DNA from: Candidatus Omnitrophota bacterium
Lineage (GTDB): Bacteria; Omnitrophota; Gorgyraeia; Zapsychrales; JANLHA01
Assembly: GCA_029560465.1 (NCBI GenBank)
Contig: JAKQKX010000073.1
Coordinates: forward strand, 79,411-143,410
Length of the DNA stretch: 64,000 nt
Direction of reading: 5' to 3'
Of the stretch, positions 4,644 through 27,300 are shown one piece after another. The notes under the pieces were generated by a model. It did not search any database. It saw nothing but the letters and a program-made list of their open reading frames with translations, and was not told the DNA's origin. Every line of letters begins with the position of its first letter. Position 1 is the first letter of the stretch. Made by a program: the position numbers and the translations under genes.

Positions 4644-5447
4644 ATGAATTTAGAAAACAAGAAACAAATAGCCATTATTATTTTGGCCGTGGGGCTCGGG
4701 CTTGTGGCTTCTGTAGGAACTGGCCACTATATTCAAACCCGGGTTGACCAGGAAACGGCTAAAATATCTCAAGAATTTGAGAATAAAAAAGTTAAGCCTA
4801 TGATGCGGGAGATTGATTCTTTGCGCAAGGAAATGCAGAAGCTTGCCAGCATGCAGGCGGCCACGGCTACAAAGGTCCAAGAGCAAAAACCCTCGGAATT
4901 ACCAGCCGTTCCCAAGTCATCATTGGCGTTGCGTACTCCTGCGGGGAAGCGGGCTTATACCGTCCGCATCGATTCTTTATCGGCCGTTGGTGGTTTGGTC
5001 AATCCAGGGGATTATATTGATGTGATTGCGCACATGGATATCCCCGACCCGGTTTCTAATTCTAATCAAAATGTGTCTTCCATGGTTTTTCAGAATATTC
5101 AGATATTGGCGGTCGGGACGAACCTTCAGGCGCCGGGCGGGTATGAACAGCAGCAGACCGCAAGGGCGCTTAATATTACGTTTGCGTTAACTCCGGAAGA
5201 AGCCAGTTTGATGTCTTTTATTGAAAAACACGGGAGAATGCAACTTATTCTTCGCGCTCCCGCTGAAACAGAAACGGAAATTATTCAGGCGGCATCCTGG
5301 AGCGCGTTAGCCGATTATGTGTTTGAAAAACAAGGAACGGAGTTAATAATTCCTAAAGAAAGAGCGGTTATTCAGCCTGTTTCTACCGGTCGAGTTGATG
5401 AAGTGAAGCCGTTTATTCAAATCTTTCAGGGAGGCAGAAGCCTTTAA
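4644..5447 (+). CDS. cpaB: Flp pilus assembly protein CpaB/RcpC-like
   Basis: N-terminal TM anchor. Conserved CpaB-like blocks 'AYTVRIDSLSAVGGLVNPGDYIDVIAHM', 'QNIQILAVGTN', 'ITFALTPEEASLMSFIEKHGRMQLILR'. Lies immediately upstream of a secretin. Confidence 0.65.
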   Translation: MNLENKKQIAIIILAVGLGLVASVGTGHYIQTRVDQETAKISQEFENKKVKPMMREIDSLRKEMQKLASMQAATATKVQEQKPSELPAVPKSSLALRTPAGKRAYTVRIDSLSAVGGLVNPGDYIDVIAHMDIPDPVSNSNQNVSSMVFQNIQILAVGTNLQAPGGYEQQQTARALNITFALTPEEASLMSFIEKHGRMQLILRAPAETETEIIQAASWSALADYVFEKQGTELIIPKERAVIQPVSTGRVDEVKPFIQIFQGGRSL

Positions 5448-5535: not shown

Positions 5536-7479
5536 ATGCACAAAATAACTAGTACTAAACAATTAATCGTTAGGGGTGTTCTGGTTCTCTGTTTTATTGT
5601 ATCTCAAATTTCCGTGACTCCGGCCCTGGCTCAGGTTCAGGAGGTTTTTGATTCTGCGGAGACACAGGATGTTTATTTGTATAAAGGGGACCTGATTTCG
5701 TTAAAAGTGTATCAACTGACAAGAATCGCCATTAGTACGCCGGGTATAGTAGAGATTGCGAACGCGGATATTGACGAATTGCTTATCGTTGGGCAACAAA
5801 TAGGAGAAACGCGGCTGTTTATTTGGGATGAATATGGGAAAAGACAGGTTTTTGTCCGGGTTTTACCTGAAGATTTGGATGCGATTATGGCGCGCATACA
5901 AAGGCTGTTGGACGCTATCGGGGTCTCGACGGTTAAAATGGAAAAAAATGTTTTTGAACGAAAAATTGTTTTAACCGGGACTGTTCTTAGTCAAAAAGAA
6001 GCGGCTCTTAATAAGGTGTTGGACCCTTTTGAGAGCATTGTCTTTAATTATGTGGACGTATATAGCGAGCTTATACAGATTGATGTGCAGATTTCAGAGT
6101 TGAACACAACGATACAAAAGGCGTTGGGGATTGATTGGAACACCGGCGCTGACGGGATGATTCTGGCTTATGAGGAAACGATGCCCGCCTTTGATGGCAG
6201 CGTTAAGGATTTGTTCAAGATCGGAGATTTTCGAAGAACTTCCGCTATCCAGGCGATTGTGACGGCGCTCATTGCGGAAGGGGAGGCTAGAATTTTGTCG
6301 AAGCCCAGCATTGTGGTTAAAAATGGGGAACAAGCATCGTTTCTCGTTGGCGGGGAAATTCCGGTGAGGAGCACCACAACCTCTACGGGAGGAGCCAGCG
6401 TTCAAGAAAATGTAGAGTATACATCTTATGGGATTGATGTTAAAGTCACGCCGGAGATTGTTGGGGAAAAAATCGAAATTAAATTAGCAGTCGCGATCAG
6501 AGATATTGATGCTTCCAATGCTGTTGGAGAGAACGTGGCGTTTACGAGCAGGAACGCAGACACAACGCTTTTTTTGGATGACGGACAAACCATTGTTTTG
6601 GCGGGGCTTATTAAACACAATAAAGCAGAGACCGTTTCCGGTGTCCCGTTTTTACGAAGGATCCCGATTGTCGGCTTTTTATTCCGCAACAAAAACTGGC
6701 CGACGGACTCAGAGCAGGAAGTGGTTATTTCTATGACGCCCAGGATCGTAACGCAGAAAAATATGAATTTCGAAAACAGGGAGATTCGCAAGAAATATTC
6801 TATAGCGGAAGATTTATATCAAGAAGAAGCCGGGCTGGTGGCGGAAGCAAGTCCGAGGAAGACAGCGGAGAAAAAACAGCCGGTTGATGACGAAGTAAGT
6901 TCTGATAAGCTGGATTCTATATCGGACGAAATTGACGCTATCCTCGCCGAAGATTTAGAAGATGTCGACGACTTTCCTGTTTCGGAAGAGTTAACCGATC
7001 AGGAAATGGACGCGATGGTCTCCGGGGAAGATGCGGTGGTTGCGGACCTGGTGGAAGAGGCTGACGCTGATGCGTCTCAGTCAGAGCCTGAAATCGAGGA
7101 AGAAGCGCCGTTACCCGAGCCTTCAGTTGAAGAAGGCGTGAGCATTGATGAGGCAACGTCTCAAGCCATTACGGAATATGTTCAAACGGTTCAGAAGAAG
7201 ATTTCTAGGGCGATCTCTTTTCCCATGGAGGCCAAAGAGCATGGATGGGAAGGAACGGTTGTTCTTTCGTTGGTTATTTTAAACGACGGCACGCTAAACG
7301 ACGCGCGTGTTCAAACGTCTTCAGGGCACGAGGCTTTTGATAAAGACGCTATTAATACGGCGCGCATTTTAGCCCCGTTTTCCTCTTTCCCCGAGGCATT
7401 GAAATTAGAAGAATTGGTTGTAACCATACCGATTGTTTACAGCCAGGAAGCTGTATTAGAGGGAGCGGGCGCAGAATAA
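5536..7479 (+). CDS. cpaC: Tad/T2SS-type secretin (CpaC/RcpA-like) with acidic linker and C-terminal TonB_C-like domain
   Basis: Secretin core 'ILSKPSIVVKNGEQASFLVGGEIPV...DGQTIVLAGLIKHNKAETVSGVPFLRRIPIVGFLFRN...EVVISMTPRIV'. Followed by a D/E-rich linker, then 'YVQTVQKKISRAISFPMEAKEHGWEGTVVLSLVILNDGTLNDARVQTSSGHEAFDKDAINTA', matching the TonB C-terminal domain consensus (Y..I...YP..A...G.EG.V....I..DG.V.D..V..SSG...LD.AA). Confidence 0.8.
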   Translation: MHKITSTKQLIVRGVLVLCFIVSQISVTPALAQVQEVFDSAETQDVYLYKGDLISLKVYQLTRIAISTPGIVEIANADIDELLIVGQQIGETRLFIWDEYGKRQVFVRVLPEDLDAIMARIQRLLDAIGVSTVKMEKNVFERKIVLTGTVLSQKEAALNKVLDPFESIVFNYVDVYSELIQIDVQISELNTTIQKALGIDWNTGADGMILAYEETMPAFDGSVKDLFKIGDFRRTSAIQAIVTALIAEGEARILSKPSIVVKNGEQASFLVGGEIPVRSTTTSTGGASVQENVEYTSYGIDVKVTPEIVGEKIEIKLAVAIRDIDASNAVGENVAFTSRNADTTLFLDDGQTIVLAGLIKHNKAETVSGVPFLRRIPIVGFLFRNKNWPTDSEQEVVISMTPRIVTQKNMNFENREIRKKYSIAEDLYQEEAGLVAEASPRKTAEKKQPVDDEVSSDKLDSISDEIDAILAEDLEDVDDFPVSEELTDQEMDAMVSGEDAVVADLVEEADADASQSEPEIEEEAPLPEPSVEEGVSIDEATSQAITEYVQTVQKKISRAISFPMEAKEHGWEGTVVLSLVILNDGTLNDARVQTSSGHEAFDKDAINTARILAPFSSFPEALKLEELVVTIPIVYSQEAVLEGAGAE

Positions 7480-7658: not shown

Positions 7659-9821
7659 ATGAGTTCAAAAATAGTTACTATTTTTAGCAACAAAGGCGGT
7701 GTTGGAAAAACGTTTGTCAGCGTTAATTTGGCAACCGCTTTAGCCTTGTCTGGAAAGCGGGTTTTGTTGCTTGATATGGATTTTCAGGCCGCGCATGATA
7801 TGGCCCGCATGTTAAATTTGGCGCCCAGAAACAGCTTGGTTAATTTGTTGGCTGAAATAGAAAAGAGCGAAGATGCCGAGGTCATCAAAAAGTACGTGAG
7901 CTCTCATTCCAGCGGGTTGGATTTTCTCCCGGGCGTTTTGCATGCCAAGCAAGCAGGACACATCTCTTCCGATAATATTAAACCTTTTTTTAGAAAGGTC
8001 GGCCAGGTTTACGACTTTATCATTGTTGATGTTGGGAAATTATTCAGTGAGACAATGTTAACGGTTCTTGACCACTGCAATGTTATTTTTCTTGTCGCGA
8101 CGCCTGATGTTTTGGCCGTCTATCAGGTGAAGTGGTGTTTGGAGATGTTGCAAAGCCTGCATTTTCCTTTAAAGATGGTTAAGCTGATTTTAAACCGGGC
8201 AGAAAGCCGAGGAGGTGTTGCTTGGCAGGAGGTCCGGTCTGCTTTGGCCTGCGAAATTTTTTCTCGCATTCCTTCCGACGGGCGCGCTGTCGGCATGGCC
8301 TTAAATCGCGGGATTCCCGTTATTATCGATTCTCCCAAGAGCCCGGTAACCGAAGCGTTTAGCCGGATGGTTAATGACCTGAAAAAAGAAGAACTTTTTG
8401 TCCAGGCTTTTGAGATTGAACGGGAAAGGACCACTGAAGGACTGGATAAATCCGGGAAGTTTTGGGAAAAATTTGGCATTACACCACAAAATATTCCAGG
8501 AGGCGTTTTTTCAAAAGAAGAGGATGAAATTACTTCCCTAAAAAGAAGGATTCATGAAAAATTGGTCAGCAGGCTTAATATTGAAGATTTAAGCCCGGAC
8601 AACCTCAGCGACCCCGCCAAAGCGGCGGAACTTAAGGATGATGCCAGAAAAATTGTCAGCAATTTGCTCATTGAAGAAAAAGGAGCGATGATCTCTTCTC
8701 ATGAAGAACGGCGACGCCTTGTTAAAGAAATTGTGGACGAAGCGTTGGGGTTAGGGGCGTTAGAAGAGTTTTTGGCTGACCCCGATGTTTCAGATATTAT
8801 GGGAAACAATAAAGATGAATTATATATTGAAAAACACGGGAAGCTCATTTTAACAAACAGAAAGTTTGTTTCCGACCAGCAGATGAGGGCTATTATTGAC
8901 CGCATTATTGCCCCTTTGGGCCGGCGTATCGATGAATCAACTCCTATGGTGGACGCGCGGCTTCCGGATGGATCACGGTTTAATGCCATTATCCCCCCGC
9001 TTTCTTTGAATGGCCCGATGATTACGATCCGTAAATTTGGGGCGGAGCGATTAGACGTCGAAGACCTCGAACAAAAATATCGCAGCTTTAGCAAAACGAT
9101 GAGAGAACTTTTGCAGGCCTGTGTCTTGGCGAGAAAGAATATTATTGTGTCGGGAGGAACCGGGTCCGGGAAGACCACCTTGTTGAATGTTATTTCGCAG
9201 TTTATTCCGGACAATGAGCGCATTATTACGATCGAGGATGCTGCGGAATTGCGGTTAAAAAAGAGCCATTGGGGAAGGCTCGAATCCCGCCCGACCAACA
9301 TTGAGGGGAAAGGCGCGGTGACCATCCGGGACCTCTTTATAAATTCTTTACGTATGCGTCCGGACCGGATTCTTATCGGGGAGTGTCGAGGTCCAGAAGT
9401 CCTGGATATGTTGCAGGCCATGAATACGGGCCATGATGGATCCATGACCACCTTGCATGCCAACTCTACCCGGGATGTTTTAGTCCGCATGAGTTCCATG
9501 ATCCTGCTTAGCGGAATCGAATTGCCGGTGAGAGCTATTAATGAAATGATCGCATCCGCCATAGACCTTGTGGTTCATGTGGCCAGATTTTCCGATGGAT
9601 CCAGAAAAATTACAGGGATAACAGAGGTTGTTGGCCTTACCAGTGAACACGCCTTGGATTTGCGGGACATTTTTATTTTTAATCAGAAAGGCATTGATGA
9701 AAACGGAACAATTATTGGAGATTTCGAAGCCACGGGGTATGTTCCGAAATGTTTTGAAGATTTCGTGACGATGGGGCTTTCTATTGACAAGACGATGTTT
9801 GTTAAACCCTCCAAAAGCTAG
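7659..9821 (+). CDS. fused CpaE/TadZ-like (ParA/MinD-family) + CpaF/TadA (VirB11-family secretion ATPase)
   Basis: N-terminal deviant Walker A 'SNKGGVGKT' (MinD/ParA class). C-terminal 'SGGTGSGKTTLLN' Walker A at ~9155-9180, 'RILIGECRG' and 'GHDGSMTTLHANS' typical of TadA/CpaF. One continuous 720-aa ORF. Confidence 0.8.
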   Translation: MSSKIVTIFSNKGGVGKTFVSVNLATALALSGKRVLLLDMDFQAAHDMARMLNLAPRNSLVNLLAEIEKSEDAEVIKKYVSSHSSGLDFLPGVLHAKQAGHISSDNIKPFFRKVGQVYDFIIVDVGKLFSETMLTVLDHCNVIFLVATPDVLAVYQVKWCLEMLQSLHFPLKMVKLILNRAESRGGVAWQEVRSALACEIFSRIPSDGRAVGMALNRGIPVIIDSPKSPVTEAFSRMVNDLKKEELFVQAFEIERERTTEGLDKSGKFWEKFGITPQNIPGGVFSKEEDEITSLKRRIHEKLVSRLNIEDLSPDNLSDPAKAAELKDDARKIVSNLLIEEKGAMISSHEERRRLVKEIVDEALGLGALEEFLADPDVSDIMGNNKDELYIEKHGKLILTNRKFVSDQQMRAIIDRIIAPLGRRIDESTPMVDARLPDGSRFNAIIPPLSLNGPMITIRKFGAERLDVEDLEQKYRSFSKTMRELLQACVLARKNIIVSGGTGSGKTTLLNVISQFIPDNERIITIEDAAELRLKKSHWGRLESRPTNIEGKGAVTIRDLFINSLRMRPDRILIGECRGPEVLDMLQAMNTGHDGSMTTLHANSTRDVLVRMSSMILLSGIELPVRAINEMIASAIDLVVHVARFSDGSRKITGITEVVGLTSEHALDLRDIFIFNQKGIDENGTIIGDFEATGYVPKCFEDFVTMGLSIDKTMFVKPSKS

Positions 9822-10171
9822 TGCGTATCACTAATCAAACAAAAAACACGCTTATTGCCGACCGAGCCCGGTTAGCCGACACGATTGTGTCGCGCTTGGT
9901 GGGGCTTCTTTCCCGGGCATCGTTGTCTTCCCAGGAAGGGTTGGTGATTACAGAGTGCCGGCAAATCCACATGTTGTTTATGCGATTTGCTATAGATGTC
10001 ATTTTCGTCAACAGGGACAACAAGGTTGTAGGGCTGGTCAGAGATATTAAACCTTTCCGAATGAGCCCGTACTTTTTTCGGGCCCAGAAAGCCATAGAAT
10101 TGCCCGTCGGGGTGATTGATTCCTCTCGAACAGAAAAAGGAGACACCCTTTTCTTGAAGGACGAAGAATAG
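9821..10171 (+). CDS. DUF192-like (COG1430) small protein
   Basis: GTG start overlapping the previous stop. Motif 'IDVIFVNRDNKVVGL ... PVGV' resembles the DUF192 family. Weak call. Confidence 0.45.
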   Translation: MRITNQTKNTLIADRARLADTIVSRLVGLLSRASLSSQEGLVITECRQIHMLFMRFAIDVIFVNRDNKVVGLVRDIKPFRMSPYFFRAQKAIELPVGVIDSSRTEKGDTLFLKDEE

Positions 10172-10729: not shown

Positions 10730-12433
10730 ATGGGTGTCGTATATAAACTTACACAAAGTGTTATTGATTTTATTCTGGCTGAAAAGGCCGCGAGCCCAAC
10801 CTTAAGTTGCCGGAAACTCGCCGAGTTGGTTTATAAAAATTTTTCGATTAGATTATCAAAATCTTCTATAAGTGCGGTTTTAAAAGAAGCGCATTTGAAT
10901 AGCCCTGTTGGACGAAGGACCTTGCCCGGATCTTCATGCCCCCCCCAGTTAACTAGAAAAAAGCCTAAGAAAGTTTTGATCAACAAGATCGCTTTTCAAC
11001 CTTATCCGCAAGAAGTTTTTGATGTAAAAGCTGGGATTTCTGATCTTTCTTCCTTGCCGGATGAAACTAAAAAAGCTTTTCAAGTGGTTCCTGATATTGG
11101 TTATATGTTTATAAAAGCAGCGGAATGGGAGCTCTTCAGGGAATCCTTTTTAGCAGAAATTTTTTCCGAAAGATTTTCGTTTTTTGATAAGATCCAAATT
11201 AATAGTTTGGTTGAAAAATTGCTTTATATGGAAATTTTTGAAAAAAACGACGCTTCTGAAGGTCTATGGAAAGAGGGCCTTTCTCAGAATGATAAGCGTA
11301 TATTCAACGTAGAAGGGCTTTGGTCCGAATTAAGTGGTATGGACAATTGGGCTGAAACCGTGATGAAATTTGTTGTAAATTTGCAGTATTATATGACAAA
11401 AGTGTCTTTTGTTCAGTTGAAGTTGGAAAACGGGAAAAATCTCTTCTTGGATGCGGAGGTAAGTTCAGTTTGGACAAATGATTCAGATTTGCCATTCTTT
11501 AATACGGTAAACCAAAGTACCAAAGCAATTTCTGACGAAATTATTAATAATGTCCAACCTGTAACGTTTTGTTTTTGTCCAATCTTAAACATCAAAGAAA
11601 ATCTTTCTCAAAAAGTATATTGTGCTCAACAATTTTTAGATTTATGTGCGACCTTTGATAATAAGGAAGGAAAACGAATTCTTCAAATTTCCATGTTGGA
11701 TTCCGAGATGAACGAAATAGCCTGTTTTGGTTCGATTCCACCGAAGAAACGGTATTTCATTACCTGTCTTTGGCCTTGGCAACCAGAATTTCATCCTTTA
11801 TTGAGAGCTATTAGAGCAAACAGATTAGAAAAATTTATGGATCCTTTTTTTGAAACCTGTGTGTATTTTTTTGAAACTTTTACCACCCTTCCTGTTGATG
11901 ATGACTTTCAGCCAAGATTAGGATTGAGGGTCTTTCCTTTAAAAGAAAATCGAATGTCAAGCCCCTTTGGGATTATATTAACGAATGCCCCTAATGATTT
12001 GTATCCTGCTAGTAAGATATTAGAGCGATATTGTCGTCGATGGCCAAATTTTCAACGAGGATTTAACTATTCTGTTGGAAAAATTAAGGCGAAGGATTCC
12101 CAATTTTTGTTATTTCAAGGAAATAATTTTAATATAAATAAAAATATTAATATTAAAAAAATTTTCGCCGACTTTTTAGCTCATTACGCTTGGCATACTT
12201 ATTTTTCATCCGGGAAAAAAAGTCTAATTCCTGTGCACCTGAAAGACATTATCCTTCCTTTGTCTGGAACGATCACGGTTCACCCCGAGTCGAGGCAGAT
12301 CCTTTTGATGCCGAGCAGTGATTATGCCTGCCTCGAGGAACTTAACTCTGCTGTGACTCGGATTAATGAAAGAAACATCGTGGATTTTTATGGCAAGCGG
12401 CTGATGATGAAGATCGTTTCTCGTCGACAATAA
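10730..12433 (+). CDS. hypothetical protein with N-terminal HTH-like domain
   Basis: 567-aa ORF. The N-terminal ~60 aa 'LTQSVIDFILAEKAASPTLSCRKLAELVYKNFSIRLSKSSISAVLKEAHL' resembles HTH domains of IS630/resolvase type. The remainder has no motif I recognise. Confidence 0.5.
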   Translation: MGVVYKLTQSVIDFILAEKAASPTLSCRKLAELVYKNFSIRLSKSSISAVLKEAHLNSPVGRRTLPGSSCPPQLTRKKPKKVLINKIAFQPYPQEVFDVKAGISDLSSLPDETKKAFQVVPDIGYMFIKAAEWELFRESFLAEIFSERFSFFDKIQINSLVEKLLYMEIFEKNDASEGLWKEGLSQNDKRIFNVEGLWSELSGMDNWAETVMKFVVNLQYYMTKVSFVQLKLENGKNLFLDAEVSSVWTNDSDLPFFNTVNQSTKAISDEIINNVQPVTFCFCPILNIKENLSQKVYCAQQFLDLCATFDNKEGKRILQISMLDSEMNEIACFGSIPPKKRYFITCLWPWQPEFHPLLRAIRANRLEKFMDPFFETCVYFFETFTTLPVDDDFQPRLGLRVFPLKENRMSSPFGIILTNAPNDLYPASKILERYCRRWPNFQRGFNYSVGKIKAKDSQFLLFQGNNFNINKNINIKKIFADFLAHYAWHTYFSSGKKSLIPVHLKDIILPLSGTITVHPESRQILLMPSSDYACLEELNSAVTRINERNIVDFYGKRLMMKIVSRRQ

Positions 12434-12833: not shown

Positions 12834-12992
12834 ATGGGGCATAATAAGGGTAAGCAAGAAAAAGGACAAAACATAGTTGAATATGCCATCGTCGTGGCCT
12901 TGGTCGCATCAGCCATGCTTGCCATGAGCACCTACGTGTTTAGATCTATTCAGGCAACACAACAGGTGATTTCAGAAGGATTCAGAGATTAA
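12834..12992 (+). CDS. flp: Flp/Fap-type pilin (pilin 1)
   Basis: 52 aa. 'GQNIVEYAIVVALVASAMLAM' is a G/XXXXEY Flp prepilin processing motif plus hydrophobic helix. RBS GGAGGTGA 7 nt upstream of ATG 12834. The ORF track's longer start at 12768 adds non-pilin N-terminal residues. Confidence 0.7.
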   Translation: MGHNKGKQEKGQNIVEYAIVVALVASAMLAMSTYVFRSIQATQQVISEGFRD

Positions 12993-13056
12993 AATGGCGG
13001 AATGGAAAACCGCCTAGCTTTGAGTGGTATGGATCAAACTATAGGAGGAATTACTA

Positions 13057-13263
13057 ATGGTATACAAGAACAGAAAAAAGAAAGGGCAAAGCACCCTCGA
13101 GTATATTATCCTGGTGACAGGTGTTATTGCCATTCTGATTATTTTCTTAAACCCGACTAATGGTATTTTTAACACAGCGTTTAATTCAACCTTGCGTACG
13201 GGTACGAATGGCATGTTTGATATGGCCAATCGGTTACAAACATCTCGTTATGATAATCCGTAA
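13057..13263 (+). CDS. Flp-type pilin (pilin 2)
   Basis: 'KKKGQSTLEYIILVTGVIAILIIF'. RBS AGGAGGA. Confidence 0.7.
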   Translation: MVYKNRKKKGQSTLEYIILVTGVIAILIIFLNPTNGIFNTAFNSTLRTGTNGMFDMANRLQTSRYDNP

Positions 13264-13302
13264 TTAATTATCAAGAGACAAAAGTAAATGGAGGAAACAT
13301 AA

Positions 13303-13677
13303 ATGTTTAGAAAGTTAATTAAGAATAAAAAAGCACAGCAAACAGCCGAATACGCGCTGTTAATTTCTCTTGTTGTCGCGGCGGTCATTGCTATGCAAAC
13401 TTATGCGCAACGAACCATTCAGGCGAGAATTCGTGACGCTTCTGCCTATTTGACAGACTCTACAAGCGCCTTAGGTAGAACCAACCAGTATGAACCTTAT
13501 TATCTGGAATCTGATTACAATGTCCTGCGTGATGACAGGGAAGAAGAATTGCAAGGGCAAAGAGCCGACTCCTCTGGGTTGTTCCAGTTAGACACAACCA
13601 GCAATAGAACTCGCGCAACCGGCGGTTATCAGACATCCAATTATGACACCAATTTTGGTGTAATTAATGGTATCTAA
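13303..13677 (+). CDS. Flp-type pilin with extended C-terminus (pilin 3)
   Basis: 'KKAQQTAEYALLISLVVAAVIAM' (Ala at -1 instead of Gly), then 'QRTIQARIRDA'. RBS GGAGGA. Confidence 0.65.
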   Translation: MFRKLIKNKKAQQTAEYALLISLVVAAVIAMQTYAQRTIQARIRDASAYLTDSTSALGRTNQYEPYYLESDYNVLRDDREEELQGQRADSSGLFQLDTTSNRTRATGGYQTSNYDTNFGVINGI

Positions 13678-13730
13678 GATCCAGATAACTTAGTGTAACG
13701 AAAATCTGAATTTTAAGGGAGGAATTTTCA

Positions 13731-14051
13731 ATGTTTAAGTTTCTAAGAAAAATAAAAGGGCAAAGTACTTTAGAGTACGCCGTCTTGATTATCATCGTCA
13801 TCGGTGCTCTTTTATCTATCCAGGTTTACATCAAAAGAGGTGTTCAGGGTAGATTAAAGAGTGCAACAGATGACATCGGTGATCAATATTCACCGGGCAA
13901 CTCAAACATCCGTCGTGTTGTGACTACAGTTAGCAATACTGCTGAAACGTTCACCTATGGTGTTTCTTCAACAACCTTGAACACGGATGAAGTTACCGAA
14001 ACATTGCAGAACCAGGTTATCATTAACGCCGAACAGGAATTCTGGGGTTAA
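13731..14051 (+). CDS. Flp-type pilin (pilin 4)
   Basis: 'KIKGQSTLEYAVLIIIVIGALLSI' followed by the conserved 'KRGVQGRLK'. RBS AGGGAGGA. Confidence 0.7.
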   Translation: MFKFLRKIKGQSTLEYAVLIIIVIGALLSIQVYIKRGVQGRLKSATDDIGDQYSPGNSNIRRVVTTVSNTAETFTYGVSSTTLNTDEVTETLQNQVIINAEQEFWG

Positions 14052-14173
14052 TTTTAGTTTATTAGATAACCAGAATGTTTTAAGCTAAATAAAGTATGGC
14101 TTACTTGAGGGGGAGAACAACTTTCGGGTAAGCCATACTTTATTTATAATCAGTTTGAACATTAAAATACTCT

Positions 14174-14566
14174 ATGAAACTTAACAAGAAGGGCCAAAAT
14201 TCTTTTGTTGAATATGCCACGACTTTTTTTCTGGTTGTTTCGATTATTTCGGTGATGGGCACGTATGTCCGTCGAGTATTGCAGGGGCGCACAAGAGACG
14301 CCCTGTATTATATGGCCGGCACCGTGCAGGCGGATTATAATTGCGGTGGAGCCGCAGATTGCGCCCTTCCGAATCATGGCTCTTTTTATTTTCAATATGA
14401 GCCGTATTACAGCAATTCAACGACAACGCGATATACGGACACGACCACGACCATGACAGAACAGGGCGCCTTTCCTCTGGGGTCGGGGATCGTAGAGCAG
14501 ATTTTTAATCACCAGATTAGCGCCATAACAAACCAAACGCAGTTGCCACCGGCTTTGGCTGATTAA
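14174..14566 (+). CDS. Flp-type pilin (pilin 5)
   Basis: 'KKGQNSFVEYATTFFLVVSIISV' then 'RRVLQGRTRDA'. Confidence 0.6.
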   Translation: MKLNKKGQNSFVEYATTFFLVVSIISVMGTYVRRVLQGRTRDALYYMAGTVQADYNCGGAADCALPNHGSFYFQYEPYYSNSTTTRYTDTTTTMTEQGAFPLGSGIVEQIFNHQISAITNQTQLPPALAD

Positions 14567-14586
14567 TTAAAAATTTTAATAAGAAT

Positions 14587-14925
14587 ATGAGAAGAAAGTA
14601 TAAGAATTCCGCGCAAACATTTTTAGAGTATGCTATGCTAGTGAGTGTCGTTGTCGCGGTCCTGATTTCTCTTACCCCGTTATTGCGCAGAGGGGTCCAG
14701 GGGATGATTCGGGTTGTTTCCGACCAAGTCGGCAATCAATCCGGCGCGGAGCAGCCCGGCGGGCTCGATGGGCATTTGGTTGAGCAGATAATAGACGTGG
14801 ATCAAGCCTCCGTCAGGCGGCGGAGGGAAGATTTTGGAGAGACGCGGGTGGATTATGACGGCACGGTGTCACAAACAGTTACGACCACAACCACGAATTT
14901 AGGATTTCAGTATAGAGATAACTAA
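14587..14925 (+). CDS. Flp-type pilin (pilin 6)
   Basis: 'NSAQTFLEYAMLVSVVVAVLISL' then 'RRGVQGMIR'. Confidence 0.65.
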   Translation: MRRKYKNSAQTFLEYAMLVSVVVAVLISLTPLLRRGVQGMIRVVSDQVGNQSGAEQPGGLDGHLVEQIIDVDQASVRRRREDFGETRVDYDGTVSQTVTTTTTNLGFQYRDN

Positions 14926-14950
14926 AAGGCTTTAAAATGAGGGTACGGGC

Positions 14951-15259
14951 ATGAAGTTATTACGAGGGCAAAGCACTTTGGAATATGTGACGCTTATTAC
15001 AATTATTTTAGGGGTATTCCTGGGGATGGGGACTTATTTTAAAAGAGGGGTTCAGGGGCGGTGGAAGGAATCCGTTGACGGAATGGGCGACCAATACGAC
15101 CCGCGGGTGACTAATACAGATATTACTGAGCGGGCGAGTGGGTTTTCCTCCACGCGTATTACCACAATCCCGGTTAACGCCGGGGTCTGGACAATGCGGG
15201 ATGACGATTCCAACATGCTTGAAGAAAAGTACGGGGCGTCAAGAGTGGCCGCCTATTAA
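14951..15259 (+). CDS. Flp-type pilin (pilin 7)
   Basis: 'LRGQSTLEYVTLITIILGVFLGM' then 'KRGVQGRWK'. Confidence 0.7.
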   Translation: MKLLRGQSTLEYVTLITIILGVFLGMGTYFKRGVQGRWKESVDGMGDQYDPRVTNTDITERASGFSSTRITTIPVNAGVWTMRDDDSNMLEEKYGASRVAAY

Positions 15260-15279
15260 TGAAACGTAAATTTTAAATT

Positions 15280-16995
15280 ATGAAATGTGACAAAGGAAAG
15301 ATTCGGAACCCTCGATTAGGCCAATCAGGGACGGAGTTGGCTATCTTTGGGGCCATGCTTATTTTTATAATCGGTTCCATTATTAAAGCGGGACTGCAGG
15401 TTAGTATGCTTAACAATATGCAATTACGAGCTTTGCGCCTTGCCTTGAGCGAATCTTACCGGACGTCCGAAGGCGAGTACATTGGTTTTGCTGGGGACGA
15501 AGGCGCGAACTCCCGGAACGTGGCGTCTATTGTTATTTTGGAAGACAGATTGAATGTGGATGCGGGTAAGAAATTCGGGTCTCGGGACAGGTTCCCGATG
15601 ACAGCCAGCGCCAGCGCTTCTATGACAAAAAATTTATTCCGTCCGACAGATTTTGGAGATCGCCGGGACCTGCCGGTGTCGGATATTTATATTAACGGCC
15701 AACGCTTTCCGTTATTAGGGGCGGATTTCAAAACAGTCACCCTTGCCAACGCTGACGGAAGCCGACCTGCCTGGATACCAGCGTGCAATGGCGCGGCACC
15801 GGCATATTTTAATTCCAGCGCCCCGCCCGCGAATCCTCCCTACGGAATGTGCTGGTGGAATAGCTGTGTTACTTATTCGAGTTGTGTTTATGTGGGATAC
15901 GGGGGCAATTATGAATTAGGTTACATGGGGGAATGTGTTATGGCAACAGGAGGGGCCGGCACGGGAGAGTATGATTTGGTGACAAATTCTGCGGGATGTT
16001 CGTTGCTGTTTACTATATCAGGCAATTATCCTAAGAGTAAAACGTGTTGTTTTGGGACCACATGTCAAAAAAATTGTAATAATCTTCCTCAAGACGTCCG
16101 TTTTGATTATGATTTTGACGGCGTATCTGATGTGCCTGCCGGGAGCCGGGACGGACAATTCTGGCAGTGGTTTTTAATCGCCGGGGTAGTTGACGGAACA
16201 GCGTTAACCTTGCCGTGGGGTGGCGTGCCGGGAATTTATGTTGATCCCAGCGGAGAGAAGGAATCGAAGAACGACAGCGTTGATGTTGACGGCGATTATT
16301 ATGAAGAGTCTATCCTTAGTTATTCTGCCTTGAGTTCTGGCGTTCTTCGAACCGTGAACGTGATTGACGGGGAGGAAGGAGATATGACCAGTTCATTCCT
16401 TTCGGATGCCCGTCAAGCCGGGGAATGGCGTTTTGCCGGGACCATCGGAGGCTCTTGTGGAGTTGAGCCGACAGGGAATTGCGTTATCGGATCAACGACG
16501 ACCGGAGAGAATGCTCTGGGGGTGTGTTCGAATTATAAATGCCTTGCTCGTTCAGTTGGTTTTTCTGAGGGCGCGCAGGTTTATACATTTACGGAATCTA
16601 ATCCAGGCCAAGAAACAGGTCAGGGAATGTATCTTCGGACGGAAGAAGGCCCGATTTTTAATGCCAACATGTCGCAATACACCCGGAGCACGGAAAGGCA
16701 TGACCAGCTAGATGTTGTGGAGCGGTTGGTTCAGCTTACCAAGGACACGGGCAGGTTTTGTGCCGACGATGTTAATCCTCGCGTCTGGGGAACTTCGGCG
16801 TGGGCGCGCGATAATGGGCTGTATGGAATTCAGAATCCGGTCGAAGTTTGTACCCGGCCCAGCACGGGAACCAATTGTTATATGGGGGGCGTCGCACAGT
16901 TGACATGTTTTGACAGGGACAACTTGATGTTGTTTGTCAGGAGCCGGATTGCCGATCTTAGAGGGAGGCGTTGGATAAGAAGATACGCCCCGTAA
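15280..16995 (+). CDS. TadE-like pseudopilin with large Cys-rich extracellular domain
   Basis: N-terminus 'GQSGTELAIFGAMLIFIIGSII' matches the TadE-family signature (G/XXXE[LF]A + hydrophobic helix). The 571-aa body has about 25 Cys in clusters (CWWNSCVTYSSCVYVG, CCFGTTCQKNC). Confidence 0.6.
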   Translation: MKCDKGKIRNPRLGQSGTELAIFGAMLIFIIGSIIKAGLQVSMLNNMQLRALRLALSESYRTSEGEYIGFAGDEGANSRNVASIVILEDRLNVDAGKKFGSRDRFPMTASASASMTKNLFRPTDFGDRRDLPVSDIYINGQRFPLLGADFKTVTLANADGSRPAWIPACNGAAPAYFNSSAPPANPPYGMCWWNSCVTYSSCVYVGYGGNYELGYMGECVMATGGAGTGEYDLVTNSAGCSLLFTISGNYPKSKTCCFGTTCQKNCNNLPQDVRFDYDFDGVSDVPAGSRDGQFWQWFLIAGVVDGTALTLPWGGVPGIYVDPSGEKESKNDSVDVDGDYYEESILSYSALSSGVLRTVNVIDGEEGDMTSSFLSDARQAGEWRFAGTIGGSCGVEPTGNCVIGSTTTGENALGVCSNYKCLARSVGFSEGAQVYTFTESNPGQETGQGMYLRTEEGPIFNANMSQYTRSTERHDQLDVVERLVQLTKDTGRFCADDVNPRVWGTSAWARDNGLYGIQNPVEVCTRPSTGTNCYMGGVAQLTCFDRDNLMLFVRSRIADLRGRRWIRRYAP

Positions 16996-17014
16996 GGATT
17001 ATAGGTGAATTGTT

Positions 17015-17314
17015 ATGAAAACACGGAAAAGGAATCAAAGGAAAAAGCTTTATAAATGGCCGGGACAGGTGTCTTTGGAGTTTATGTTTGGGATGATCGG
17101 TGTCGTTTTGCTTGTGGTCGGGATGATTCAGGTTTTTGCCTGGACAGGCAATGACCTGATGAAACGTTTTAACTCTCATGAAGCTCTTTTGGTTTCTCCG
17201 GTTGGCACTTCTCAACCTGCGGCTCCTTTAGAACAGGTCCGGCCGATGTTTTATTCGGTCACAAAAATAAACGCAACGGTTAATAGCAATATTTTTGGAG
17301 AGGAAGCTCCTTAA
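17015..17314 (+). CDS. small TadE-like pseudopilin
   Basis: 'WPGQVSLEFMFGMIGVVLLVVGMIQ' pilin-like N-terminus. 99 aa. Its 3' end overlaps the next ORF start by 20 nt. Confidence 0.45.
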   Translation: MKTRKRNQRKKLYKWPGQVSLEFMFGMIGVVLLVVGMIQVFAWTGNDLMKRFNSHEALLVSPVGTSQPAAPLEQVRPMFYSVTKINATVNSNIFGEEAP

Positions 17315-21362: not shown

Positions 21363-21806
21363 ATGTTTCGGCAAAGGAGAAGTGCTCAATCTATATTGGA
21401 GTATATGACCTTGATTGTTTTTTTATTATCAAGCTTGTTTGTCTTTCAAGGTTATATTTTAAGGGGTTATTATGGAAGCTGGAAAAAGGCGGGGGATGCT
21501 TTTGGCTCAGGGCGTCAGTATGACCCCAGGCCTTTTGGGAATTATGGAGATGGCGGCGGGACTTTAGAATGTTTTTTTGATGCCACCCACTGTACGTCAG
21601 GGACCGGCCCGGCCCGGCCGTGTACGTTAATTAACAGATGGATTTCAAAGGCCTGTTATGATGCGACACCCTGTGATTGCACGATGCCAATCGGAACGAC
21701 GGGGTATATCACACAGTGTTTGCAGTGTTTAGAAAATTGTAGCGAGTCTGTAGCTGCGGGAGCGCTTTGTGGGGACGTGACGACATCGAGGGTTTTAATT
21801 GATTAA
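21363..21806 (+). CDS. Flp-like pilin with Cys-rich C-terminal domain (pilin 8)
   Basis: 'RRSAQSILEYMTLIVFLLSSLFV' Flp-type N-terminus. The 100-aa tail has 12 Cys (CTSGTGPARPCTLINRWISKACYDATPCDCTM...CLQCLENC). Confidence 0.55.
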   Translation: MFRQRRSAQSILEYMTLIVFLLSSLFVFQGYILRGYYGSWKKAGDAFGSGRQYDPRPFGNYGDGGGTLECFFDATHCTSGTGPARPCTLINRWISKACYDATPCDCTMPIGTTGYITQCLQCLENCSESVAAGALCGDVTTSRVLID

Positions 21807-21841: not shown

Positions 21842-22696
21842 ATGTATGTTTCTCTATTTTGTATATTTATATCTGCGACAATGTTTGGGTATTTTGTCAT
21901 TCCGTTAATTTATAATAAATCCGTAGAAGTTGGCCAAAAACGGGCGCATAAACTTTCTTCAAAACTGGACAGGGTTTTGCCCCGCTCCAAGGTTGAAAAG
22001 ATAACCCGCTTTTATATCATTGCTCCGATTGTTTTTGGAGGGGCTTGCTATATGTTTTTCCCGGAAGACCTGCGGCTTTTCGGTATAGGAATCGGACTGG
22101 TTTTCGGTTTAATTTTTCCAGGAGTTTATAACAACCTCCTTATAGGGCAAAACAGGAGGAAATTTGATGACCAGTTAATAGATGCGCTTATGATTATGTC
22201 AAGCTCCTTCCGAGGGGGGTTGAGTTTGGTTCAGGCCATGGAAGCCGTTGTGGAAGAGATGCCGGATCCGATAAACCAGGAATTTTCGATTGTTTTGGGG
22301 GAGAACAATATGGGGGTTTCTCTGGATGAAGCCCTTAATCATCTTTATAATAGGCAGCCTTCTCCGGCCGTGCAGCAAATGACAACGGCTATTTTGCTGG
22401 CAAGAGAAACAGGGGGGAATTTGCCCAGTATTTTTCAGCGGATTGTGAATGTTATTCGTGAACAAAAAAGAATAAAATCTCAGATAGACACTTTGACAGT
22501 TCAAGGAAAAATTCAAGGTGTTGTTATGTCGGCCTTGCCTATTATGTTTTTTACGATTATTTACGGAACGAATCCGACTTTCTTTGATCATATGTTTAAG
22601 TCCACGGTAGGGAGGGGCATGCTTGTTTATGCGGTTTTTTCGGAAATTTTAGGCGCCATTATGATTTGGAAGATTAGTAGTTTTAAAGATTTTTAA
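21842..22696 (+). CDS. tadB: TadB-like inner-membrane platform protein (T2SS-F domain)
   Basis: T2SSF-domain pattern 'LIDALMIMSSSFRGGLSLVQAMEAV...EFSIVLGENNMGVSLDEAL...TAILLARETGGNLPSIF'. Flanked by TM helices. Confidence 0.7.
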   Translation: MYVSLFCIFISATMFGYFVIPLIYNKSVEVGQKRAHKLSSKLDRVLPRSKVEKITRFYIIAPIVFGGACYMFFPEDLRLFGIGIGLVFGLIFPGVYNNLLIGQNRRKFDDQLIDALMIMSSSFRGGLSLVQAMEAVVEEMPDPINQEFSIVLGENNMGVSLDEALNHLYNRQPSPAVQQMTTAILLARETGGNLPSIFQRIVNVIREQKRIKSQIDTLTVQGKIQGVVMSALPIMFFTIIYGTNPTFFDHMFKSTVGRGMLVYAVFSEILGAIMIWKISSFKDF

Positions 22697-22734: not shown

Positions 22735-23625
22735 ATGTTAATGCTGACATTTGTTTTGACGATGTGTTTTTTGGCGGGATTTAGTTTTGTTGTTGGGCTT
22801 TTTCCGATGGAAATGGAGAGCCGGCCTACGTTAAAAGCTTTTGGATATGAGGTGGCCCCGGCAAAGAAGAAAAAGAATGCGACGTCCATGTTGCGTGCTT
22901 TAGCCATGTTTAATAAACCATTGTGTTCAGGGGGCCTTCGGAAGAGAATTTCAAAAGATTTATCTGTGGGGCATGTTAACTTGACGCCGGAAGAATTTTT
23001 CTTAATGAAGGAAATCGGTATTATTTTGGTGCTTTTGTTGACTTTTCAGATGATTCAGCCAGACATGATTCTTTTTTGGCTTTTTATGAGTCTTTCTATT
23101 GGTTATATGATGCCGGAATTTTGGCTTAAGGGAAAAATTAAAAAAGTCAAAGCTGTTATTGTGAAGGAATTGCCGAATGCCATTGATTTGCTTGGCCTTT
23201 GTGTGAATGCTGGGTTGGACTTTATGTTGGCTTTGAAGTGGGTTGTTGAGAAATCAACACCATCGGTCATGATTAACGAGCTTAATATCCTTTTGCAGGA
23301 AATCAACGTTGGAAAGACCCGCCGTGACGCATTAAAAGATTTGGCGGTAAAATTTGACCTTCCGGAAGTTTCTTCCTTTTCAAGGACGCTTCTCCAGGCA
23401 GATAAAATGGGGACCTCTGTTTCCGAAGCCCTGAATCTTTTGTCTGAAGACATGCGCCTTGCCCGATTCCGCAGAGGGGAACAAATGGCCATGAAAGCGC
23501 CTATGAAGCTGTTGGTGCCCCTGTTGTTCTTTATTTTCCCTGTTGTCGGAATTCTTGTCGCCGGCCCAATATTTCTGCAGTTTATTGAGGAGAATCCGTT
23601 GTCAGAATTGGGTGGGAAAAAATAA
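22735..23625 (+). CDS. tadC: TadC-like inner-membrane platform protein (T2SS-F domain)
   Basis: 'LPNAIDLLGLCVNAGLDFMLALKWVVEK...ELNILLQEINVGKTRRDALKDLAVKFDLPEVSSFSRTLLQADKMGTSVSEAL' T2SSF pattern. RBS AGGAAGAGG. N- and C-terminal TM helices. Confidence 0.7.
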   Translation: MLMLTFVLTMCFLAGFSFVVGLFPMEMESRPTLKAFGYEVAPAKKKKNATSMLRALAMFNKPLCSGGLRKRISKDLSVGHVNLTPEEFFLMKEIGIILVLLLTFQMIQPDMILFWLFMSLSIGYMMPEFWLKGKIKKVKAVIVKELPNAIDLLGLCVNAGLDFMLALKWVVEKSTPSVMINELNILLQEINVGKTRRDALKDLAVKFDLPEVSSFSRTLLQADKMGTSVSEALNLLSEDMRLARFRRGEQMAMKAPMKLLVPLLFFIFPVVGILVAGPIFLQFIEENPLSELGGKK

Positions 23626-24162: not shown

Positions 24163-24326
24163 AAAATGGCAAAAATTATAAAAATTATAGGAGGAGCAGA
24201 AAAAAAACTAAATAGTTTTTTGTTGAATTCTTTCAGCTTGTTTCAAAAAATTCCTTCCACTTGTATTCGAGGGCACCAGTTAGCCCATTGTTTCGTTAAT
24301 AATCTGGTTAATTTCTAGAAAAATAT

Positions 24327-27300
24327 ATGAATTTTAGATTGGACAAAAAACTAGGTGCCGAAACTGTCTCTAAAGGTATATTAGAGAATAGGTTAATTTC
24401 TGCGTCTGAAAGTATTGTCCAAAATGAATTAAAAGAAGAGTCTTTTAAAAGTAGATTTAAGTCTTGGATTCGGCTTGTTGCCCTTGTTGTTGTTTTAATT
24501 TTCCTTCCAGAGCAGGTTAGCTGGGCTTTCAACTACAATCCCGCTGTTCTTTGGGGACACTCGTCTTCGTCTGTTCAGGTGATTGACTTGGATTCTCCCA
24601 ATCCCCAGGTTTCTCAAGAAGAAATGATGGCGATACAGCTTTCCTCCGGTGTCGCCAATCTTTTGGAACAAATTGAGAACAAAGAAAATGCACAAATTAA
24701 ACTCGGGCTGTCTTCAGATATAAATAATTCTCTTTCTAGTGAGAAAAGCGTTTTAATTTCTGCGAAGAGGAAAATCACTCCGGATTATGTCCAATCTGTT
24801 AAATCTTGGATTCGTAATCCTAATATTCACCCATTTAATTGTGGTGTTTATGCTTTAAAAGATTTGTTAGATGGCAACAAAATTTCAACGTCTTTGGCTG
24901 AAATTGCTGTGGCAACTCTTTCCGTCGATCTTTTAAATAATATTATTGAGCCTGGAGAAAAATTCTTAAAAACTTCTCTTTTTGCGATTGAAGAAGTTGC
25001 CCGCGGATATGGTCTTAATGTTCAGGCCGTCAAGGTTGACACGCAAGACATCCTTTATCTGAAAACTCCGTTTATTGCCAATTTTGGTTCGGAACACTTT
25101 GTGACTGTTCGGTCCGTTGATGCTCAGAATGTGTACTTCTCTGATATTGGCAAGCAACAGTCTATGCCACGAGATCAATTTAAAGAGAAGATCAGCGGTT
25201 TTGTTCTTGCTGTCAATTTGGATCGCCAAGAAGATATGGAATACGAACCCATTTCAGACGCCATGAAGGTGTTTGTTTGGGGTAATAAATGGATAGACAG
25301 ATCAGATGATTTGCCCGGGTTGTTGTCTGGGGCGGATGTTTTTGCTGCTGTAATTTCCATGGTGGTTCAGATTGTCATCGCTTATATTATGGGTGGCCCG
25401 CTTGGAGTTATTATTTCTTTAGCTTCTTCAACTTTTGGTTCTGCCGTAGGGGAAGCGTATTATGTTAACTGTGTGAATGATGGCGGAGATGATTGTGAAA
25501 GCAATGCGTTTATTTTAAGCACAGCTATTACAATTGCTGTTTCAGTAGGTTTGAATTATATGGCCGGGATAGGATCTGAGGCCGGAAATGCAGCGGGCGA
25601 GGCTGCCGCCAGTGGTGGGGAAACCGCATTGGAGTCTACTGCCAGTACCGGCGCAACCAGCTCCCTTAGCACAGCTTTACAAAATGCGGCAGTTGGTGCG
25701 GCAGTTGGTGCGGCTCTCGGGTGGGCCGTTGCGAAGATGACGGGAAAAGATGCTACCAAGGCGGCGCTTATTGGTGGGTTAATTGGAGCTGCAGGAGGAT
25801 TAATTGCTGGTTATGGTGGGTTTGGTGAGGGGATTCAAAGCGCTTGGCAGAGTTTGATAACAAAACTTCAGAATATATGGTCTAGTATTAAAGGGTTTTT
25901 TAATAAGGTTTTTGGCGGCGGCGCTGCATCTACGGCAACGAGCACTACTTCCACAACGAGCATGACAGTGACTCAGCGGTTGTGGGATATTGCGAAGGCC
26001 TTTGCCAAAGGCTTTACGGTCGGGATGATTAAGGCTTATGTTCAAGTTAAAATTGCCGAATTTTTAGAAGAGCATTTGGATATTGATAGTGAAATTTTGA
26101 AATCGGTTTTAGTTGGGTTGATTTCTTCTTTGGCTGCGGATTTGGCGGTGGGTGTTGTTGCCATGGGATTGGACGCGGCCGCAGATGCGTTGTTTGACAA
26201 GCCTGCCAGTGGTGATACCGAGGATTTGGGCTGGCGTGAAATGTTGGGCATGAAAGATGACTCGGAAGCGTCAAAGAAACAATATGCCAATCAGCAGGTT
26301 GAAAAAGCGCAAATTAAGGCAAAGGCTGAAGGGAAGGGGCCGCTTACTGGTGATCAAATTGCGCAAGTTAAAGCGGACGCAATGAGTAGCTATAGTTCTT
26401 TTAAGTTAAATCTAGCAGACATGGGAATGATGGCCCTTCAGCGGTTAGCAGGGGGGATGGGGAGTTTTATATTAAGATATATATTTAAAGATAAATTCGA
26501 CCCAAGCTCCATGATGTCTCAAATTCTTGGCAATTTTGGGTCTTTAATCGGGATGACGCTGTTTAATGTGATCGCTTACGGAGACACTTGGGGAACAACA
26601 TATGATATTAAGAAAGAAAAAGACGAAAATGGAAATGATGTATATACTTATGAAAATGTTGGAACGAAAGAGAACATAAAATCTACTACAACTACAACCG
26701 AAGAGGGGAAAACGGTAACGAGTCATTATTCCGGAACGCATAATGTCACCATGCTTGATACGGATGGTAATCTAGATAACGGTTATGAAAAAGCGTTTGT
26801 TCAGGGATCTTTTTTGGGAACGATTTGGCGGGGTGCGGTTCAAACATTGGTATCGATGTTGTTGGCCCTTGCCCTTTTTGGTAAAGAAGATTTTTCAGAA
26901 GCTGAAGGGGCGGATGGGAAGACGCGAGACAAGGATGAGCGAGCCAAGCAATTTTGGACGTGTAGTTTAATTTTCTTAGGGTCTGTTCTTACGCAGGGTA
27001 TATTCGCATCAATAGCCGGAATGTTTAAAACGTCTGATTTGGCTGCTATAGGAACAAAAGATTATGAAAACCAACAAAAAGCAGGCGGAAAAACAGACGG
27101 GGAAGACAAGCAAAGCATAGGTTCTATTTTCTTGAATGTAACAGGAAATGCTTTTCAAGAGTTTGCTTCTAATTTAGTGGGCGATTGGGTTGGAACAGCC
27201 CCCACTGGCGGAAAGTTTGCTAACTTGTCTTCCTTTGGCACCTATGTTGAATCTATGCAAAAAATGGGCGGCATTACTTTAGATACTGTGTTGAAGGCCC

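Follow-up and report, generated by a model that had tools for sequence, protein, structure and literature searches.

Introduction

The Tad (Flp, type IVc) pilus depends on a motor ATPase, TadA or CpaF, and on a ParA/MinD-type recruitment factor, TadZ or CpaE, the two being encoded side by side in most tad loci. Classical TadZ binds ATP and has low ATPase activity (PMC6668835). A departure from the two-gene arrangement is on record, with functional data, for Bdellovibrio bacteriovorus, in which an "atypical TadZA fusion ATPase" joins both proteins on one polypeptide (10.64898/2026.07.08.737194). Here we analyze a 64,000-nt stretch of a Candidatus Omnitrophota contig (JAKQKX010000073.1, positions 79,411 to 143,410; hereafter the window), in which one open reading frame (ORF), tadZA, encodes a fusion of the same kind.

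The B. bacteriovorus protein has no receiver domain, and the preprint that describes it credits earlier work with having noted the fusion (10.64898/2026.07.08.737194). RomR, a polarity hub, is bound by its TadZ and linker region, and the protein redistributes dynamically with a bias toward the invasive pole (10.64898/2026.07.08.737194). The tad locus of strain HD100 has the order Bd0113-Bd0109 (PMC5430801, PMC3818213) and, according to the literature on this locus, contains no prepilin peptidase. Regarding Omnitrophota, Seymour et al. 2023 (PMC10066038) analyzed TadB, TadC and RcpA and reported that TadB and TadC group with those of Bdellovibrionales; the fusion is not mentioned there, and the literature searched contained nothing on a CpaE-CpaF or TadZ-TadA fusion in this phylum. 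A preliminary description of the window had held that TadZ/CpaE and TadA/CpaF are separate genes in characterized Tad systems, a view that the Bdellovibrio study has made outdated. The kind of fusion is already known, and the Omnitrophota member belongs to a different phylum. What is new here is comparative: the breadth of its distribution, a canonical Walker A motif in its N-terminal domain, and a linker motif specific to Omnitrophota.

Results

One conserved reading frame encodes both domain sets

The tadZA frame starts with ATG, ends with TAG at 9819-9821 and comprises 720 codons with no internal stop. As the preliminary description had stated, it carries the deviant Walker A KGGVGKT in its N-terminal part and GGTGSGKTT and GHDGSMTT in its C-terminal part (Table 1). 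Since cpaE/tadZ and cpaF/tadA are neighbors in most tad loci, a frameshift or lost stop that merged two separate genes has to be considered on general grounds. Four public assemblies (JGI 3300010355, JGI 3300009780, ENA ERZ795059 and NCBI GCA_035400085.1), some of which may share read sets, nevertheless contain the gene without a single nucleotide difference, and in one locus of 13.6 kb no more than 2 positions deviate from the window. Among the 120 closest protein clusters (90%-identity clusters, 67-100% identical to the window protein, with named sources that are mostly Candidatus Omnitrophota), 118 have both domain sets at a length of 716-737 aa. The remaining two are shorter (P0018, 588 aa; P0078, 686 aa), which at first sight would favor a merge; neither is a cpaE/cpaF split, and P0018 begins at an internal methionine, M133, inside the N domain, away from the boundary between the domains. 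In Omnitrophota, Tad loci thus have the fused gene as a rule.

The substitution pattern points in the same direction. A 92%-identical ortholog (L085) lies on a 3.36 Mb contig in complete synteny with the window from gyrB/gyrA onward. Between the two genes synonymous sites are saturated (proportion of synonymous differences, pS, about 0.75), and the proportion of non-synonymous differences (pN) is 0.05-0.07 throughout, from the N domain across the linker to the C domain. Codons 258-330, which span the junction, hold 10 non-synonymous and 31 synonymous differences, a pattern which indicates that the junction is translated in the tadZA frame and is under purifying selection. Residues of the linker are also invariant among homologs, and 71 of the best 150 more distant representatives are fused as well (see below). 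On the identical assemblies, the conservation across clusters and the codon substitutions, raw reads not being part of this evidence, we reject a frameshift or merge artefact at 8.4-8.7 kb, to which we assign a negligible probability. The absence of a stop or frameshift between the domains, as first described, was thus borne out.

Table 1. Features of the tadZA gene and of the surrounding tad locus in the window
Feature	Position (nt)	Strand	Basis or remark
tadZA, fused ParA/MinD-type and CpaF/TadA motor ATPase	7659..9821	+	single 720-aa ORF, domain matches, homologs
N-terminal ParA/MinD-fold (TadZ-like) domain, aa 4-257	7668..8429	+	Pfam, NCBIfam, AlphaFold (AF2), Foldseek
deviant Walker A KGGVGKT, aa 12-18	7692..7712	+	signature lysine K12 and P-loop lysine K17
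inter-domain linker, aa 258-287	8430..8519	+	low-confidence/disordered in model
linker motif FWEKFG, aa 268-273	8460..8477	+	conserved; short predicted helix; position like that of the MinD membrane-targeting helix
CpaF/TadA part, aa 288-720	8520..9818	+	three-helix bundle, N-terminal domain, RecA-like ATPase domain
motor Walker A GGTGSGKTT, aa 499-507	9153..9179	+	G499-G502 and G504-T507 invariant; position 503 is S or A
GHDGSMTT motif, aa 591-598	9429..9452	+	
rcpC/cpaB	4644..5447	+	PF16976 RcpC 81 bits; TIGR03177 86 bits, above cut-off
rcpA/cpaC secretin with C-terminal TonB_C	5536..7479	+	Secretin 146 bits, TonB_C 52.5 bits
DUF192 gene	9821..10171	+	GTG start, 1-nt overlap with tadZA stop (TAGTG)
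567-aa ORF	10730..12433	+	no Pfam match
two Flp-type prepilin genes	12834..12992, 13057..13263	+	G/xxxxEY Flp motif in translations
pilin-like genes	12834..17314, 21363..21806	+	the two short Flp prepilins and at least seven longer genes
tadB-like platform gene	21842..22696	+	PF00482 T2SSF 65.8 bits
tadC-like platform gene	22735..23625	+	PF00482 T2SSF 51.4 bits
giant open frame	24312..63998	+	no stop over at least 13,229 codons; leaves the window end

The C-terminal part is closest to CpaF

The Pfam domain T2SSE (PF00437) covers aa 364-643 (203 bits, E 7e-60); this match and the N-terminal Pfam matches given below exceed chance by a wide margin. In a phmmer comparison with the PDB, the C-terminal part matches Caulobacter crescentus CpaF (8rkd, 8rjf and 9e24) at 378 bits (E 3e-112), while archaeal GspE, FlaI and VirB11 reach 126, 123 and 112 bits, respectively. 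Foldseek gives the same picture: the C-terminal 430 residues match the same CpaF/TadA structures at 44-46% identity, and the top four hits are all CpaF. Like C. crescentus CpaF, the window protein has the three-helix bundle, which the model places at aa 285-344 ahead of the ATPase domains, followed by the N-terminal and C-terminal domains with all ATPase motifs. The T2SSE domain contains the Asp box, the Walker B glutamate and the His box in addition to Walker A, the combination by which CpaF/TadA is recognized, and across 37 aligned homologs K505, T506, T507, E575, G591-S595 and H600 are invariant together with the glycines of GGTGxGKTT. The NCBIfam TadA-family profile TIGR03819 scores 317.1 bits on aa 329-654, below its curated cut-off of 373.15, so the motor part is related to this narrower equivalog family but falls outside it. 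By these comparisons its closest solved relative is CpaF, not PilB, PilT, GspE or VirB11.

The match to CpaF begins at residue 110 of its 501 residues. The ParA-type domain and linker of the window protein thus fill the place of the N-terminal extension of CpaF, which in C. crescentus amounts to about 110 residues and has no ParA-type fold.

The N-terminal domain has a ParA/MinD fold and a canonical Walker A motif

Pfam assigns aa 4-240 to AAA_31/CbiA/ParA (PF13614, PF01656 and PF10609; E 1e-16 to 5e-18), and the AlphaFold model is well supported in this region, with a predicted local distance difference test score (pLDDT) of about 80-90 over aa 1-250. Among curated NCBIfam profiles, the best is archaeal minD_arch (TIGR01969; 96.1 bits, cut-off 201.75), followed by bacterial MinD (TIGR01968; 82.1 bits, cut-off 212.9), and CpaE_hom_Actino scores 39 bits with a cut-off of 154. 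No atypical receiver domain (ARD) precedes the ParA fold, which begins at aa 4 with no Response_reg match in Pfam or in the model. Like A. actinomycetemcomitans TadZ, C. crescentus CpaE and E. rectale TadZ (3fkq), the domain has a ParA/MinD fold, is specific to the tad locus and stands beside TadA; it differs from them in having no N-terminal ARD, in keeping the P-loop lysine and in being covalently joined to TadA. The earlier label "CpaE/TadZ-like" therefore holds in part: it suits the fold and the position of the domain, but the receiver domain is missing, the Walker A keeps its P-loop lysine, and the best curated profiles are those of MinD, below their cut-offs.

This mixture of features raises the question of whether the domain is a TadZ/CpaE ortholog at all. 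It might be a MinD/FlhG-type ATPase with a remnant of the membrane-targeting helix that was fused to TadA separately and serves as an ATP-driven membrane or dimerization switch gating motor assembly and not as a polar hub. The MinD profiles, the missing ARD and the canonical deviant Walker A with both lysines agree with such an independent recruitment, as do the invariant switch aspartates, and E. rectale TadZ ranks only 46th in the Foldseek search, in which FleN, FlhG, MinD and Soj follow the best match. That best match, however, is the Chlorobium tepidum ParA-family ATPase 3ea0 (template modelling score 0.88, root-mean-square deviation 2.6 A), which is also the best solved relative by sequence (66.6 bits, compared with at most 55 bits for solved MinD structures). 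Like the window domain, 3ea0 is a single ParA-fold domain with no ARD; it differs in being a stand-alone protein and in its Walker A, KGGDGGS, which is of TadZ type and has no P-loop lysine. MinD and FlhG (FleN) share with the window domain the deviant Walker A with both lysines and a conserved short hydrophobic/basic element after the fold, but the scores lie far under the cut-offs, the window has no minC/minE or flagellar genes near tadZA, and the C-terminus runs into a secretion ATPase. The domain moreover sits precisely where tadZ belongs, downstream of rcpA and in frame with tadA, and it scores higher against the N domains of Bdellovibrionota TadZA (median 96, maximum 133 bits) than against solved MinD. 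Taken together with the linker and fusion evidence below, we regard independent recruitment as unlikely.

Whether the domain still handles nucleotide is a separate question. KGGVGKT matches the TadZ pattern K/RGGxGxS/T, but just as well the canonical motif of MinD type, in which the lysine is kept. It is present in 112 of the 120 Omnitrophota-type proteins, and KGGVGKS occupies its place in 74 of 79 Bdellovibrionota proteins. A catalytically dead structural scaffold, as proposed for classical TadZ with its low activity despite ATP binding (PMC6668835), would be in keeping with the degenerate Walker A of many other fused lineages. It is opposed by K12, K17, D39, D41 and D124, which are invariant or nearly so in Omnitrophota and Bdellovibrionota and argue that nucleotide chemistry has been retained; we consider the scaffold very improbable. 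Because these five residues, along with G13-G16, are invariant in all 37 aligned homologs, the N domain is probably a working nucleotide-dependent dimerization switch of the MinD/FlhG type, unlike classical TadZ.

The linker carries a motif specific to Omnitrophota

The two domains are separated by a disordered stretch with pLDDT below 50 across aa 252-287. Within it, F268, W269, K271 and G273 are invariant in the 37 aligned sequences, and the strict motif FWEKFG is found in 111 of the 120 Omnitrophota-type proteins and in none of the 79 Bdellovibrionota proteins, which makes it a conserved linker motif specific to Omnitrophota and a new detail of this family. The model predicts a helix at aa 266-270. 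FWEKFG sits 10-15 residues past the end of the ParA/MinD fold, the position at which MinD and FlhG have a membrane-targeting helix (MTS). This amphipathic-type element is a further argument for an independently recruited MinD/FlhG-type ATPase, and its lack in the Bdellovibrionota fusions is an argument against it. Its hydrophobic moments on the Eisenberg scale lie level with or above those of MinD MTS sequences, values that do not discriminate. The motif may serve to bind the membrane or a partner.

The window protein belongs to the family of Bdellovibrio TadZA

The window protein is colinear with a Bdellovibrionales homolog (P0140) over aa 21-715 at 41% identity. With this homolog as seed, a genome scan returned 80 Bdellovibrionota loci, of which 79 are fused; all are from metagenome-assembled genomes (MAGs), with no HD100 record among the results. 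In one of them (L002), the order RcpC-secretin-fusion-TadB-RHS equals the published Bd0113-Bd0109 order of HD100. From the colinear identity, the 79 fused loci, this gene order and the missing prepilin peptidase in both loci, we place the window protein in the same family as Bdellovibrio TadZA. For the N domain, the Bdellovibrionota N domains give higher scores than any solved stand-alone relative (at most 66.6 bits), a result that is compatible with a shared origin without proving it.

The likeness to Bdellovibrio TadZA (tad locus 1, Bd0111) extends to architecture and setting: in both, a ParA/MinD-like domain without ARD, a flexible linker and a C-terminal TadA are encoded in one ORF, both Walker A lysines are kept, and the gene follows rcpC and rcpA in a locus with no prepilin peptidase. 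Apart from the phylum, the differences concern the linker, which is shorter in the window (about 72 versus 93 residues between domain envelopes) and has FWEKFG where part of the Bdellovibrionota fusions have a GGxLQKLK-type segment, and the downstream genes, since tadB does not follow directly in the window but is separated by DUF192, the 567-aa gene and pilin genes.

The fusion is widespread among close TadA relatives

A set of 1.84 billion representatives at 50% identity was searched exhaustively, and the best 150 were classified. ParA-TadA fusions account for 71 of them. The named fused representatives belong to Bdellovibrionales, Bdellovibrionota, Bacteriovoracia and Spirochaetota, and the others come from lineages without names. 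Inspection of ten long relatives classified as unfused revealed four with N-terminal FHA domains, four with no N-terminal Pfam match and two divergent ParA fusions that phmmer had missed; 71 of 150 is therefore a lower bound. In close TadA relatives of the FHA kind (P0178, P0186, P0216 and P0263), one or two N-terminal FHA domains replace the ParA-like domain, and the TadA N-terminus seems to be a hotspot for the fusion of regulatory modules. That it accepts other modules such as FHA also favors, to a degree, a separate recruitment of the Omnitrophota N domain.

Two further observations were made among the homologs. Six proteins (P0121, P0122, P0124-P0126 and P0129) contain two to four tandem CpaF/TadA modules, as in the 1156-aa P0121 with three copies, and may represent either genuine concatenated motors or errors of assembly. 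A full-length fusion with 73% identity (P0038) is labeled "Candidatus Bathyarchaeia archaeon" at NCBI; it probably stems from an Omnitrophota contig that was mis-binned and does not represent a Tad motor of archaea.

The surrounding genes form a tad locus with no separate tadZ

The gene order in the window is PpiC/SurA-like, rcpC/cpaB, secretin/TonB_C, tadZA, DUF192, the 567-aa gene and two Flp prepilins, followed further downstream by larger pilin-like genes, two large uncharacterized proteins, tadB, tadC and the giant open frame (Table 1). The 64,000-nt window contains neither a stand-alone tadZ/cpaE nor a prepilin peptidase (TadV/CpaA). Orthologs of the prepilins have Flp_Fap or Class_IIIsignal matches. 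The module PpiC-RcpC-secretin/TonB_C-TadZA-DUF192-(unknown)-Flp is retained around a 67%-identical homolog (L086) in a different genomic neighborhood.

Several neighbors have features of their own. The TonB_C domain of the secretin (aa 560-635) follows an acidic low-complexity linker, and the same combination occurs in L085 and L086. We know of no description of an RcpA/CpaC secretin fused to TonB_C. DUF192 is directly downstream of tadZA in L085 and L086 too, and the TAGTG overlap of stop and start suggests translational coupling. The 567-aa ORF between DUF192 and flp has a GC content of 0.35-0.39 in surroundings of about 0.45; its counterpart in L085 is a 566-aa gene, and in the more distant L086 a 978-aa gene, of unrelated length and likewise without Pfam match. 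Pilin-like genes are unusually many, and the longer ones (99-147 aa) encode the GQSTLEY-type N-terminus also seen in the short Flp prepilins; two large Cys-rich proteins of 571 and 1348 aa in this region have no Pfam match. The giant frame directly past tadC has, in its first 4000 residues, a Peptidase_C39-like match at aa 221-302 only, and fits literature reports of "giant ORFs" beside Omnitrophota pilus and secretion genes.

Discussion

The tadZA product is most probably the motor ATPase of the Omnitrophota Tad pilus and a natural TadZ-TadA fusion. By analogy with what is known of CpaF/TadA, its C-terminal part would form a hexamer beneath the TadB/TadC platform and drive ATP-dependent extension and retraction of the Flp filament. 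The N domain, in analogy with TadZ/CpaE and with the interaction of B. bacteriovorus TadZA and RomR, would connect the motor with a positional cue or with a complex in the envelope, probably as a nucleotide-dependent dimerization switch of MinD/FlhG type, with FWEKFG as a candidate membrane- or partner-binding element. Since recruitment factor and motor reside on one polypeptide, the fusion would fix them at an inseparable 1:1 stoichiometry.

Several points weigh against this interpretation. Homology and genomic context are the grounds on which a function is assigned to the Omnitrophota protein. Its N domain stays below every curated family cut-off and does not have the ARD that defines canonical TadZ/CpaE, so that the name "TadZ" is owed to the place of the gene and to its likeness to the fusion of Bdellovibrio. 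The whole-protein AlphaFold model is mediocre, with a mean pLDDT of 65.9. The hydrophobic moments of FWEKFG are unremarkable and lend no direct support to membrane binding. The link to the HD100 protein runs via Bdellovibrionales MAGs and synteny. A crude neighbor-joining tree of 166 TadA domains (358 columns) intermixes fused and unfused proteins with no single fused clade, the best clade holding 86 of 87 fused proteins together with 50 of 79 unfused ones; it does not tell one fusion event from several and leaves shared descent with the fusion of Bdellovibrio unproven.

A bolder version of the motor reading may be entertained, although we think it rather doubtful. In the Omnitrophota proteins and other fusions with a canonical Walker A, the ParA/MinD module could be a working ATP switch in every motor subunit, with pairing of N domains and the FWEKFG anchor gating the TadA hexamer. 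Neighboring N domains would then pair in an ATP-dependent manner to give three dimers per hexamer, and FWEKFG would act as a MinD-like membrane or partner anchor, so that assembly or activation of the hexamer is gated at the site of host-cell contact. If true, this would be a regulatory principle undescribed for type IV filament motors, and it may be common to two predatory or parasitic lineages, Bdellovibrionota and Omnitrophota, through an ancient fusion or a transfer of the locus.

The value of the finding is comparative rather than conceptual, and in kind it is unsurprising. It bears on annotation, because fused proteins are named inconsistently ("MinD", "CpaF", "T2SS/T4P ATPase") and a search for a separate TadZ in such loci would wrongly call TadZ missing. 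It also places the sole published TadZ-TadA fusion, which its authors regard as atypical and which comes from B. bacteriovorus (10.64898/2026.07.08.737194), in a broader frame: with 118 of 120 clusters in Omnitrophota, 79 of 80 loci in Bdellovibrionota and 71 of the best 150 representatives, a single-species oddity becomes a widespread motor subclass. For Omnitrophota, a phylum suspected of predation or parasitism whose members are uncultivated or exist only in enrichments, the fusion is an independent character beside the reported affinity of its TadB and TadC to those of Bdellovibrionales (PMC10066038).

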